Shown piece after piece: positions 40,366-45,881 of a stretch of DNA of 64,000 nucleotides. The notes beneath the pieces were generated by a model. That model saw nothing but the letters and a program-made list of their open reading frames with translations, ran no database searches and had not been told where the DNA came from. Position 1 is the stretch's first letter. Every line of letters starts with the position of its first letter. Origin of the DNA: Escherichia coli (lineage in GTDB: Bacteria > Pseudomonadota > Gammaproteobacteria > Enterobacterales > Enterobacteriaceae); NCBI RefSeq assembly GCF_016026235.1, contig NZ_CP065613.1; one strand, given 5' to 3'. A program made the position numbers and the translations under genes.

Positions 40366-41556
40366 TCAGGATTTCTTCATTTTCACCTTTGCAGTAACCA
40401 ACAATGCAGTCAGCAACATCAATGTGCCGGACAACATCAACGGCGAAGTCAGACCAATATTATCCAGCGCATAACCGCCGATTGCCGCACCACAGGTATT
40501 AGCAAGCTGAATAACCGCCACCTGAATAGACCCGGCTTTTTCTGCCTGATCGGCCAGCGAGCGGGTGATCCACGTTGACCAGCCGACGGGAACCAATGCA
40601 AAAGTTAGCCCCCAGATAATCGCCACGCCGGTAGCAACGATTTTATCGCTTCCCCACAACGTCAGTACCAACGCACTCACAGCCAGTATTAACGGCGCGC
40701 CTGCTAAGGCCAGTTTTACCGAACGTTTAAGAATGAACGACGAAAGCGACGTACCAATAAAGCTGGCGATACCAAAACTCAACAGCACCAGCGTTAAGCC
40801 ATCCACGCCGAATCCCGCCAGGTTCATATACACCGGGCGAATATACGTGAAGAAAGCAAACTGCCCGGCGAAAGACATGAAGATGGCGATCATCCCTGCC
40901 ATCACACCCGGACGTTGTAATAAGCGGAAAGTATTTTGTTTCTGATGCGAGGGTTCGCCTGGCAGCGAAGGCAATGATTTGATAATCCAGAAAATACACA
41001 ACACGCCCATCACCGCCGCCGCATTAAAGACATTGCGCCAACCGATAAGCTCGCCTAAAAAACTGCCCAACGGCGCGGCAATCACCAGCGCAATAGAAAC
41101 CGCGCCGAAGATCACCGACAGCGCCTTCGGCACCGTACGCGGCGGTACCAGACGCATGGTCAGCGACGCCGACATCGCCCAGAACCCGCCCAGCGCCAGC
41201 CCCAGACAGGCACGACCGATTAAAAGCAAACTGAATGAGTTAGCAAAGGAAACCAGCAAACAGGAGAGCGTCAGCAAAACGGCAAATAAAATAACAACGT
41301 AGCGGCGGTCAGTAGCCTGAATTGTCTGGGTAATAAACAAACTGGCAAACATTGCCACAAAGGCGGTCACGGTCACCGATTGCCCGGCAACCCCTTCCGA
41401 AATGCCTAAATCCTGGGCCATTGGCGTCAACAAACTGACGGGCAAAAACTCAACGATAATCAGACAGGCGACGCAAAACGCCACCGAGAAAACGGCTGAC
41501 CAGTTCGGTCGGGTGATGGCATCCGCGCCGCGGTTTTCGGCAATAAATTCACTCAT
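40366..41556 (-). CDS. nepI: purine ribonucleoside efflux pump NepI (MFS)
   Basis: 396 aa from [40 protein letters not shown]...; the listed ORF extends upstream to an earlier start. Confidence 0.9.
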
Positions 41557-41783
41557 GGTGTTACCCGTGGCATGTTTCAGGGGAAAAGCCGACCACTTTA
41601 ACATTGAAATGTGTGACGCATTTAACGTTTTTGCAACTTTTACGGTGTTGTGGGAAAAGTTCGAGGCTGCTCGAAGAAACAAAAATCATAGGGCAAGCTG
41701 ATATGCATTTTCGCGATTGGGTTGGGAATAAGGGATAAAGTATTGCACTTGGTGATATACTTTAATAACAGGACCTCAACGAT

Positions 41784-42143
41784 ATGCGCGTGTTTAAAAC
41801 CAAATGGTTTGCAAGGGAAGCCAGGTCTCATGCAATAACAGATGAAGAGTTGTGCCGGGCCATTTTAGAAACGGAGCAAGGTAAAGCTGATGCACTTGGT
41901 GGTGGCGTTTTTAAAAAGCGCCTTCACCAAAATCGTGAGCGTGCAATTATTCTGGCAAAAGGGGGAAGCAATTGGTTTTACACGTTTTTATATGCAAAAC
42001 AGGATATGTCGAACATCAATAGTCAGGAACTGGCTGGGTTTCGTGAACTTGCAAAGCATTATGCCTTCCTGACGAAAGCCCAGCTAACAGCAATGATTAA
42101 CACTAAAGAACTGACAGAGATCTGCTATGACTGCAAAAACTAA
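41784..42143 (+). CDS. HigB-like toxin (RelE/ParE superfamily) of a type II toxin-antitoxin pair
   Basis: 119 aa; the motif ...LGGGVFKKRLHQNRERAIILAKGGSNWFYTFLYAKQDMSNINSQEL... parallels the HigB pattern GxGGLRKxRxxxxGKGKRGGxRxIYYF...KNEMSDL (recalled). Toxin-first order with a 17-bp overlap onto the following HTH gene. Confidence 0.7.
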   Translation: MRVFKTKWFAREARSHAITDEELCRAILETEQGKADALGGGVFKKRLHQNRERAIILAKGGSNWFYTFLYAKQDMSNINSQELAGFRELAKHYAFLTKAQLTAMINTKELTEICYDCKN

Positions 42144-42450
42144 ATTTAAAAGTCCTGCATTTGAGGCTATTCACAGCGCAGCGGCTGGATTGTCCAGCGT
42201 CGATGCTATTTCTGCCGAAACAATGCGTACTTTTGACAAAGCCTGCCTGACCAGCGTGCAAGACTTACAACCTGTTGAGATAAAAGCACTGCGGGAAAAA
42301 TTAAAAGTGAGTCAGCCCGTCTTCGCTCACTATCTCAATACCAGCGTTTCAACTGTACAAAAATGGGAAAGTGGCGCTAAACGCCCCAATGGCATTTCAT
42401 TAAAACTGCTCAGCATTGTGCAAAAACACGGGCTGGATGTGCTGCTGTAA
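42127..42450 (+). CDS. HigA-like antitoxin (XRE-family helix-turn-helix)
   Basis: 107 aa; ...LKVSQPVFAHYLNTSVSTVQKWESGAKRPNGISLKLLSIVQKHG... matches the HigA-type HTH (VSQPVFA...STVQSWEQG...LRLLQIV, recalled). Confidence 0.7.
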   Translation: MTAKTKFKSPAFEAIHSAAAGLSSVDAISAETMRTFDKACLTSVQDLQPVEIKALREKLKVSQPVFAHYLNTSVSTVQKWESGAKRPNGISLKLLSIVQKHGLDVLL

Positions 42451-42475
42451 ATAGAACGTAGATAATGCGTCACCT

Positions 42476-42560
42476 ACTGTCAGTTCCGATACCGGATGCG
42501 GCGTGAACGTCTTATCCACCCACCAGCTCAGGCGCGGTCTGTAGGCTGATAAGACGAAGC
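42476..42560. repeat. REP-like (repetitive extragenic palindromic) element(s)
   Basis: CCGGATGCGGCGTGAACGTCTTATCC ... GTAGGCTGATAAGACGAAGCGG resembles the REP consensus GCCGGATGCGGCGTAAACGCCTTATCCGGCCTAC. Confidence 0.4.
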
Positions 42561-42564
42561 GGTT

Positions 42565-43017
42565 TTAATGCAGCCAGTGAACGCCCTCGGCAGGCTGAAA
42601 GAATGCGTTATAGCGCATCTGAAAAGCATTAATATCCTGCATTTCAGGTTCAGTTTCGCGCAGAAAACCCAGCGCCAGCCTGACCTGAGCATCGGTAATC
42701 GGCGCGGCAAGGCGGGCTTTTTGTAAAATCCGATGCCATTGCAGCAGGTTCTGTTCGCTACCATCGACAATGACAATTTGCCAGATGAGCAACACCTGCG
42801 CGGCGTTTTGCAGGTGCGACTCATCCGGACGATGCAAATAACGTAAAAATTCGTCACCAGCTGACTTTCCCATTTGATCGACCATCGACTCCACGGGTAC
42901 GACATCGATATTCAGCCGATCGCTGAGACGGCGAATCGCTTTTCTGGCCCCGGATGTCAGCACCCGAAAACCAACCACAAACACTACCGCCAGCGTGGCG
43001 AGCATTATCCAGATCAT
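42565..43017 (-). CDS. yicN: DUF1198-family protein YicN
   Basis: 150 aa from MIWIMLATLAVVFVVGFRVLTSGARKAIRRLSD...; the listed ORF has an upstream extension. Confidence 0.85.
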   Translation of the reverse strand: MIWIMLATLAVVFVVGFRVLTSGARKAIRRLSDRLNIDVVPVESMVDQMGKSAGDEFLRYLHRPDESHLQNAAQVLLIWQIVIVDGSEQNLLQWHRILQKARLAAPITDAQVRLALGFLRETEPEMQDINAFQMRYNAFFQPAEGVHWLH

Positions 43018-44301
43018 GAGTTCTCCTGCGTAATCAAAACTCATGATATCTGGAAACCCTCGCCAGTTACTAATCCACCAGAATAATCTTGAGTGCAAAC
43101 AGAGCTGCGACCACCACCACACACAGGTTCAGATCGCGCCAGCGCCCGGTGCACACTTTCATGATGCAGTACGACATAAAGCCGAGTGCAATCCCTTCGG
43201 TGATCGAGAAAGTAAAGGGCATCATCACCGTGGTAATAAACGCAGGCACCGATTCGGTAAAATCATCCCAGTTAACGCGCGCCAGGCTCGAAGTCATCAG
43301 CACGCCAACAAAGATTAACGCTCCAGCGGTTGCGTAAGGAGGAACCATCGCCACCAGCGGTGAGAAGAACATAACCAACAGGAACATAACGCCAACCACA
43401 ACCGCAGTCAGCCCCGTGCGGCCACCCACTGCCACGCCAGAAGTACTTTCAATATAGGCGGTAACAGACGAGGTGCCGATAAACGCACCCGCCACCGAAC
43501 TCACGCTATCAACATACAGCGCCTTATTCATATTGGGGAATTTACCGTTACTATCTATTAAGCCAGCTTTATCAGTCACACCAATTAATGTTCCTGATGA
43601 ATCAAATAGGTTGATCAGCATAAAGGAGAAAATGATACCGGCGAGTTCAAGTGTTAACGCGCCGCTCAAATCCACTTCACCAATGACGCCGCTAATATCA
43701 GGCGGAATGGAATAGACACCGCTAAAATGAACATCACCGAAAAATAATCCACAGCAAGACGTCACCACAATAGAAACCAGCACCGCGGCATGAAAATGAC
43801 GTGATGACAACACGGTTATAATAAAAAACCCTAAAATACCTAACAACACGCCGTGAGAACTTAAATCGCCAATCATCACCAGAGTGTCTTTATTGGCGAC
43901 AATAACGCCAGTATTTTTTAATCCCATTAAGGCGATAAATAATCCAATTCCGCTGGTGATACCAATACGTAAACTTAATGGAATGTTGGAGATCATCCAG
44001 TACCGGATACGAAACAGCGTGAGCAAAAATAGTCCAATTGCACCCCAGAATATTGCGCCCATCCCGGTCTGCCATGAGATCCCCATCGCCCCCACGACCA
44101 CGAAGGCAAAGAAGGCGTTCAGCCCCATTGCCGGAGCCAGCGCCACAGGTAAGTTAGCAAATATCCCCATCGCAATGCTGCCGATACCGGCAATCAAACA
44201 GGTGGTAACAAACACCACTTTCGGGTCCATTTGTGCCGCGCCGAGAATTTGCGGGTTCACAAAAACGATGTACACCATGGTTAAAAAAGTGGTCATCCCC
44301 T

Positions 44302-45589
44302 GAGGGATCCCCAGAAAATTTAGTAAACCATTATCATATTGGTATACCGTTGCTGTAGAACTTTCAGCCCTGCGTCAAGTGACAGTGTGTTTAGTATGAG
44401 TGGAGAATGTCGAATCACATTCTCCGCCAGTTTTAATAACGAGATGACTCGCCTGTGCTTCACTGTATTTGCCTGATATTTATGATGTATCCCTTTGTTT
44501 TCCAGGCTGAAACCGCTTAACCACATAATGATACTGGCTAATGTTGCGATCAGACTCAATACCGTGACCCGCCCGGATGAATGACTGGCACCAAACCGTA
44601 GTCCAAATCCCCAGCGAGGATTTTTTCATCCCTGAAATTTTGCTCAATTTGCATTCTACGGCTGTATAATTTCATTACCTGTTTTGGCGAGAACTCAGTA
44701 CTGTTTGTGAAAATAAACCATGGTGATTTCCCGGCAGTACGAGCTTTAGCCGTCACCGATGGTCTGGTTGCTCTTTCCTTCGAGCGTTTAAATCTACGAC
44801 CTTTAGACTTACTTTTATAAAGATAAAAATGCCCTTCATGTTGTGCATTTTTATCTCGACCCAGCAGGCCTTCATCTAAATAAATTGCTGTCGTTGATGC
44901 TTTTGTGCCTGAGTCCGACACCTTTTCCCAGCCATTACCAACATTGTAATAATGATTGCCCAGTACCCGGCAAATATAGGTCCAGCCACGGGAGCGGAGC
45001 TGTTGGAACCATCGCCCCTGAAAACCGGCATCTGTAATAACAATGACATCAGTCCCGGGGGAAAAGCACTCAGCAAGCGATTCCAGAAAACGCTCATGTA
45101 CATCTGCATTCGCTGTCTGTGATGATGGAACGACACAACTCATCAACGGTAAAGAACGCCCGTCACATGCCAGGCTTGCCCGCAAAAGCTGAAAACGAGA
45201 GGCATGATAAGCACTCCAGTCAATGAGTATCACAACACGAGACATTCCCCGCGTAATCTTTTGGGTAATTCGCTGAAAAATGGTGGAAACCTCATTTTGC
45301 AAATGTCGATTCCCCAACAGTCGATCCACCCGCTTTATTTTGTTTTTAACTGATGCCGTACCGGTTAAATGACGCCCGATACTGGTAAGTGTGAGGGAAG
45401 CGCCATTTATTACAGCATTAGTTGCGTCAATCAGTGATTTTTGACGGTAAAGATGCAAAGGGGCCAGTATGTTGTTAAGGAAATTTTGGCATAATGAACG
45501 TGCAGGCATAGTGGTGATCTCCTTGAAATTGTTAGCACAATCAATTAGATCACATCTCACTATGCCTGTCTTGTTTTCTGGGGATTCCT
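44302..45589 (-). mobile_element. IS4-family insertion sequence (IS10-like transposase), about 1.29 kb, with imperfect terminal inverted repeats and a 13-bp target site duplication
   Basis: Ends TGAGGGATCCCCAGAAAA (left) and, as reverse complement, GAGGAATCCCCAGAAAA (right); flanked by direct repeats AGTGGTCATCCCC at 44289-44301 and 45590-45602; encodes an IS10-like transposase. Confidence 0.8.
44320..45509 (-). pseudogene. IS4-family (IS10-like) transposase, reading frame broken by a frameshift in an A6 run
   Basis: MPARSLCQNFL...NKIKRVDRLLGNRHL...DAGF...YLYKSKSKGRRF...LYSRRMQIEQNFRDEK parallels IS10 transposase up to plus-strand 44621-44626 (TTTTTT). The homologous continuation ...NPRWGFGLRFGASHSS...HKYQANTVKHRRVISLL... 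is in another frame, ending at 44320. Confidence 0.7.
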
Positions 45590-45881
45590 CAGTGGTCATC
45601 CCCGCAATCAATTCTGTGCGGACGGTGGTCCCATGCTGAGGTAGTTTAAATAATCGCGAAAGCGTCCCTGATTCATTACTCACGTAATCGGTATTGTCAT
45701 TATTCATTTTTTTGTCCATTGGAGGAGATTTAATCCCTTGCTTTTGTAAAACAAATGACAACAACGGTTCAGTGATAATTATCACATTTCAATTGCACAT
45801 TAATGGATATTCTTTAATAATCTCGCGACGTTTCTTTATGATAAATAATAATCAAATTGATAAAATCAAAATGAGAAAAAT

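Follow-up and report, generated by a model that had tools for sequence, protein, structure and literature searches.

We consider it likely that the two overlapping genes located between nepI and yicN in the Escherichia coli window (the whole stretch of 64,000 nucleotides analysed here) make up a type II toxin-antitoxin operon on the chromosome, belonging to the HigBA2 (ToxP/AntitoxP) family, and are old residents of this spacer. The pair is already annotated in RefSeq, with the products 'type II toxin-antitoxin system RelE/ParE family toxin' and 'helix-turn-helix domain-containing protein', and is structurally not novel; the family has already been characterised in Vibrio cholerae and Coxiella. 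The present analysis adds a precise family assignment, to the HigB2/ToxP lineage as opposed to canonical HigB, and a predicted operator and active site that are usable for experiments. The features of the locus are listed below.

40366-41556, minus strand: nepI, the flanking gene on one side of the pair
41650-42489, no strand: segment of 840 bp absent from K-12-type genomes, where it is replaced by an unrelated 42-bp filler
41743-41757, no strand: candidate operator, imperfect palindrome TTGCAC-TTG-GTGATA, the core of a wider inverted repeat (41736-41764)
41753-41761, plus strand: candidate extended -10 element TGaTATACT, read from the sequence; the palindrome's right half extends over it
41770-41773, plus strand: ribosome-binding site AGGA, 10 nt before the ATG at 41784 and just 3' of the inverted repeat
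41784-42143, plus strand: toxin gene, ATG start, 119 aa, PF06296 (HigB2/ToxP family, RelE/ParE superfamily)
42127-42450, plus strand: antitoxin gene, ATG start, 107 aa, with an N-terminal two-helix region and a C-terminal XRE helix-turn-helix (HTH)
42490-42560, no strand: inverted repeat of REP type that follows the pair, marking the right boundary of the indel and also present in K-12
42565-43017, minus strand: yicN, the flanking gene on the other side of the pair

An earlier note on this DNA had described two overlapping plus-strand reading frames of 119 and 107 aa with a 17-bp overlap (42127-42143). Its coordinates were exact, and the peptide motifs that it quoted were found in both proteins. 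Both are real genes and not chance open reading frames, as confirmed by the Pfam match of the toxin (E 1e-41), the dN/dS values and the recurrence on public contigs, at least 1000 of which carry the exact toxin and at least 1000 the exact antitoxin. Within Escherichia, dN/dS was 0.07-0.13 for both genes, which indicates that both are maintained by selection. RefSeq places the toxin start at GTG 41790 (117 aa). Since ATG 41784, with AGGA 10 nt upstream, is kept in all genera compared, the 119-aa form appears more likely than the 117-aa form. The positions of the neighbouring genes bore out nepI and yicN as the flanks that the note had named. It had also suggested that K-12 has no such pair at this junction, and this proved correct: the nepI-yicN spacer is 1008 bp in the window and 210 bp in K-12, where it contains no gene.

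The toxin gave a single match in Pfam, PF06296 ('RelE'; E 9.8e-42), which extended over model positions 1-120 of 120. As Pfam reported PF06296 alone, neither PF05015 (HigB of Rts1) nor PF09907 (HigB of K-12) was matched; the toxin also had no match in NCBIfam and matched 0 families of PADLOC. According to a survey of the RelE/ParE superfamily, PF06296 represents HigB2-type toxins, i.e., ribosome-dependent mRNA-cleaving toxins encoded in toxin-first order (PMC11980606). HigB2 of V. cholerae, the only PF06296 member found among solved structures, also matched this family (E 3.3e-8), over model positions 8-96 of 120 only, and its identity to the window toxin was weak (about 20%). Searches of solved structures with the toxin, as a single sequence and as a profile, yielded nothing useful, and a profile-profile comparison with HigB2 returned a probability of only 4%. 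Accordingly, it is the Pfam match, the fold comparison and the family alignment that connect the toxin to HigB2.

In the family alignment bridging to HigB2, the HigB2 residues K49, R51, R64, Y82, and K84, known to be important for activity (PMC5416850, PMC10098735), aligned with K44, R46, R53, Y70, and K72 of the toxin. These putative active-site residues were well conserved among 259 distinct homologues: R46 in 250, R53 in 256, and K72 in 245, with Tyr or Phe at position 70 in 247 (139 Tyr and 108 Phe). The structural model of the toxin had the RelE/ParE (BECR) fold, and the nearest solved structure was HigB2, ahead of ParE toxins; the gyrase-inhibiting ParE toxins (PF05016) provided neither a profile match nor the closest structural similarity. 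The toxin is assigned to the HigB2 lineage, distinct from canonical HigB (PF05015 or PF09907).

The C-terminal part of the toxin, approximately 25 residues, is present in the family model and absent from HigB2. It was predicted to contain a helix (residues 98-106) and a strand (110-115) with a near-invariant Glu at position 112. Cys24 and Cys114 occurred together in 171 homologues, were both missing in 33, and occurred singly in 25; these are raw counts, uncorrected for phylogeny. Their co-occurrence suggests a contact or a disulfide bond between the two positions. The C-terminal extension of PF06296 toxins might have a regulatory role, acting for instance as a lock that responds to redox state or as an additional interaction surface, although we regard this idea as speculative and rather unlikely. 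If it were true, most PF06296 toxins would have a control mechanism or a target unseen in V. cholerae HigB2.

The antitoxin consists of two regions. The C-terminal one (about residues 46-105) is an XRE HTH, which matched HTH_3 of Pfam at residues 52-96, and its best solved relative was V. cholerae HigA2 (E 9e-10 by sequence and 3.7e-14 by profile, the HTH domain only). In PADLOC, the antitoxin had only weak generic HTH matches. The N-terminal 45 residues were strongly conserved across phyla (FEAIHSxA..L...G.I...TMR.FD), with invariant His16 and Asp37; this region could not be aligned to HigA2 and is conserved with AntitoxP of Coxiella. A model of a toxin-linker-antitoxin fusion, built with 33 paired sequences, reached a pTM of 0.67 despite a disordered linker of 30 residues and placed helices at antitoxin residues 10-24 and 30-40 with pLDDT above 90. 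The model, in which the interface itself is not displayed, fits the idea that these N-terminal helices are the toxin-binding segment.

The HTH of the antitoxin also resembled the C-terminal domain of MqsA. The match to the C-terminal part of MqsA in Pfam was weaker (E 1e-5), and the NCBIfam models TIGR03830 (MqsA) and NadS were matched at E 1.5e-10 with 41 bits, compared with curated cut-offs of 61.8 and 60. Only the C-terminal parts of the MqsA models were matched (positions 47-119 of 127 and 53-123 of 131). Identification as MqsA (TIGR03830) was rejected, as the match was below the cut-off and covered model positions 47-119 only, leaving the N-terminal CxxC zinc domain without a match. The window toxin is not MqsR.

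The two genes behave as a unit. The set of module-bearing loci comprised 80 loci from a scan of species-representative genomes, nine added separately, and the window itself. An antitoxin homologue lay directly downstream of the toxin gene in 89/89 of the module-bearing loci, and the 17-bp overlap was kept in 64 of the 89. The core reading of the earlier note, a toxin-first type II pair resembling HigBA and variable among E. coli, gains support from the PF06296 assignment, the HigB2-like model and the HigA2-like HTH. Its label 'HigB/HigA-like' holds for the toxin-first order and the full-length PF06296 match and fails for the canonical HigB families, which were unmatched. The search against RelE/ParE profiles that it had proposed placed the toxin in PF06296, shared with HigB2, and not in a non-toxin family.

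Among characterised systems, the closest is ToxP/AntitoxP of Coxiella burnetii (CBUA0028/CBUA0027; plasmid QpH1), likewise a toxin-first, overlapping operon (PMC10098735). Over an alignment of 114 residues that takes in the C-terminal extension, ToxP and the window toxin were 31% identical; AntitoxP and the window antitoxin were 55% identical from end to end, the N-terminal region included. Experiments on the Coxiella pair have established that ToxP is toxic, that its toxicity is rescued, that it inhibits cell-free translation, and that AntitoxP binds both the toxin and the promoter (PMC10098735). ToxP/AntitoxP is plasmid-borne and stabilises its plasmid, whereas the window pair is chromosomal, and ToxP differs from the window toxin in having a long basic beta2-beta3 loop and in lacking C24 and C114. 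HigB2/HigA2 of V. cholerae (VCA0468/0469; PDB 5JA8, 5JAA, and 8A0X; PMC5416850, PMC11006873) is a toxin-first pair of the same family, PF06296. HigB2 is the best structural match and has active-site residues identical to those of the window toxin, but it has a longer basic loop and lacks the last ~25 residues of the family model; HigA2 is homologous to the window antitoxin in its C-terminal HTH, whereas its N-terminal region is unalignable. Unlike the window pair, HigB2/HigA2 is located in a superintegron. The canonical HigB/HigA systems (Proteus Rts1, PF05015; K-12 HigB/YgjN, PF09907) share with the pair the toxin-first order, the RelE/ParE superfamily fold, and an HTH antitoxin. In our search of the literature by locus, protein accession, and O157 locus, no experimental work on the E. 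coli pair came up, and this pair appears to be uncharacterised.

The region upstream of the toxin gene contained a candidate operator. The imperfect palindrome at 41743-41757 is embedded in the inverted repeat TAAAGTATTGCAC-TTG-GTGATATACTTTA (41736-41764), and a cleaner palindrome, TATAGCAC-N3-GTGCTATA, was found at the same aligned place in Citrobacter, Klebsiella, and Salmonella. In other taxa, TAGCAC-N3-GTGCTA lay upstream of the toxin gene, and the core GCAC-N3-GTGC was present within 70 nt upstream of it at 66 of the 89 loci. These 66 loci came from several phyla, with Acetobacteraceae, Betaproteobacteria, Rhizobiales, and Gemmatimonadota among them, and their genomic surroundings were unrelated; therefore, the palindrome belongs to the module and not to the locus. 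Neither TAGCAC-N3-GTGCTA nor GCAC-N3-GTGC was found upstream of toxP on Coxiella QpH1. All Escherichia alleles had a degenerate palindrome with two mismatches in 12 positions to the consensus (TTGCAC-TTG-GTGATA or TCGCAC-TTA-GTGATA). Despite this degenerate operator, the Escherichia antitoxin HTH (residues 61-87) had only two differences from the family consensus.

TGcTATA(C/G)T was found in other genera at the same position as the candidate -10 element, and ACAGGA before the ATG was conserved in all syntenic genera. A scan of the spacer for consensus sigma-70 promoters and terminators found no -35/-10 pair and no terminator; accordingly, the promoter position is one that we infer. HigA2 binds a single inverted repeat reaching over the -10 element (PMC11006873), and AntitoxP binds its own promoter (PMC10098735). 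The HigA2 operator resembles the present one in this arrangement and differs in sequence (TGTACGC-N5-GCGTACA). Based on these two precedents, occlusion of the -10 element by the antitoxin is the likely mechanism of autorepression.

By analogy with the characterised members of the family, we infer toxicity, neutralisation, DNA binding, and RNA cleavage for the E. coli pair. The free toxin would enter the ribosomal A site and cleave translating mRNA, leading to a stop of translation and growth. The N-terminal part of the antitoxin would wrap the toxin and block its activity, and the antitoxin dimer, alone or together with the toxin, would bind the palindrome and repress the operon.

The earlier note had regarded the pair as inserted between nepI and yicN, and a comparison of this spacer among E. 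coli genomes, as it had suggested, showed that the pair is variable. The module was annotated, always as a single chromosomal copy, in about 1716 of the 5426 complete E. coli genomes, O157:H7 and ST131 among them. The sequence in common with K-12 extends to 41649 and resumes at 42490, the left edge of the REP inverted repeat; between these points, K-12 has the 42-bp filler CTTGAGCTGGAGTTAAGATCGAAACGGAACAGGGCAAAGATTA (positions 1851-1892 of our K-12 locus L002), which directly adjoins the REP element and matched nothing in the window or in other genera. Among the matches listed, the module-less E. coli (n = 16) had one identical junction with the same match span of 1003 bp. The pair also lay between nepI and yicN orthologues in Citrobacter koseri, C. 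amalonaticus, six Klebsiella species, one further Enterobacteriaceae genome, and two further Escherichia lineages, and it adjoined nepI in Salmonella. Within Escherichia, dS was 0.16-0.26 for the pair and 0.29-0.43 for the flanks, values that we regarded as comparable; between E. coli and Citrobacter, dS was saturated for the pair and likewise for the flanks. Since the pair is syntenic in Citrobacter, Klebsiella, and Salmonella and as diverged as its flanks, the K-12 state looks like a loss. These comparisons point to a long residence at nepI-yicN with loss in K-12-type lineages, which is probably the correct history, and make insertion improbable; about two thirds of E. coli, including K-12, most likely lost the pair. 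This matters for studies that define 'accessory' genes by reference to K-12. As for the REP-like repeats that the note had cited for an accessory module, a REP-type repeat is indeed present at about 42490-42560, for which Rfam gave only sub-threshold naRNA4/REP matches. Because it is common to K-12, the repeat is not part of the module and is uninformative on mobility.

Rare deviating states of this locus were seen in two E. coli strains: HS-02 had a decayed copy (79% nucleotide identity) with a frameshifted toxin, and in GF130 a larger deletion had taken out the module together with the 5' end of nepI. At other sites, the family is mobile. It occurred in other contexts in Dickeya and Morganella, with an integrase adjacent in Morganella, and relatives were found on 183 plasmid records, most of them from rhizobia or Coxiella, two of the records being chromosome-sized E. 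coli and Klebsiella pneumoniae entries. In a metagenome-assembled genome of Collinsella sp., two contigs of ~1 kb (L013 and L049) carried the module with fragments of yicN or nepI. Their module copies, one of E. coli type (toxin 97% identical to that of the window) and one of Klebsiella type (65%), most likely represent enterobacterial contamination of the bin.

We then weighed other readings of the pair. It could be a real toxin-antitoxin pair whose toxin acts through its C-terminal extension on another target, for instance a cellular enzyme such as RNase III, as in SehA, or gyrase, as in ParE. Salmonella SehA is an inhibitor of RNase III and not an RNase, and its extra C-terminal helix carries residues required for toxicity (PMC12817084); therefore, prediction of a target from the fold can fail, and the mRNA target of the window toxin stands as a prediction. 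The conserved C-terminal helix and strand, E112, and the covarying C24/C114, all absent from HigB2, would also be in keeping with another target. However, the five active-site residues of HigB2 are all kept and strongly conserved, HigB2 precedes ParE toxins as the nearest structure, and Coxiella ToxP, which has the same C-terminal extension, inhibits cell-free translation (PMC10098735). In addition, SehA shows ~40% identity to K-12 HigB with a different order of secondary structures (PMC12817084); it thus resembles the K-12/Proteus HigB proteins and, by its authors' description, is not a close relative of the window toxin. We consider another target unlikely, with a small but appreciable chance. 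SehA/SehB was rejected as the Salmonella orthologue on the same description (PMC12817084); the true orthologue is a different 119-aa protein adjoining nepI.

A domesticated or attenuated module, in which the HTH protein would mainly regulate transcription, perhaps that of the divergent nepI, and the 'toxin' would be a harmless co-repressor, seemed distinctly unlikely. It agrees with the higher conservation of the antitoxin between genera (about 80-86%, versus 65-73% for the toxin), the 227-bp divergent intergenic region common to the pair and nepI, the degenerate Escherichia operator, and the loss of the module from most E. coli without obvious consequence. Nevertheless, purifying selection acts on the toxin (dN/dS about 0.1), its active-site residues are kept, and the conserved region proximal to nepI (41557-41649) is retained in module-less K-12. 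Moreover, the palindrome and the pair occur together in unrelated genomic contexts, and therefore the regulator serves its own operon. A module for abortive infection or other anti-phage defence, which the earlier note had offered together with an addiction module, is very improbable in our view. Defence toxins do exist in the RelE/ParE superfamily (PMC11980606), the Morganella pair adjoins integrase and helicase-type genes, and many plasmids carry relatives. Nonetheless, the toxin has no match in PADLOC, in E. coli, Citrobacter, and Klebsiella the pair has housekeeping transporter genes on both sides and no defence island around it, and the sole match in the phage collection was a contig of a Salmonella genome. 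The defence part of that earlier reading was thus dropped, and the HigBA2-type toxin-antitoxin operon remains our preferred reading. As such, the E. coli pair would make an easy model of the full-length form of the family.

Beyond yicN in the window, an IS4-like element, ISEc60 (44290-45606), interrupts the 5' part of adeQ (43070 to about 45720, minus strand). The N-terminus of AdeQ (MNNDNTDYVSNESGTL...) is fused to IS sequence in an open reading frame at 44556-45785, and the remaining part of adeQ forms another at 43070-44296. In the closest complete genome, FDAARGOS_943, adeQ is intact, ISEc60 is found elsewhere in many copies (36 matching places), and an IS1 lies between nlpA and yicS.
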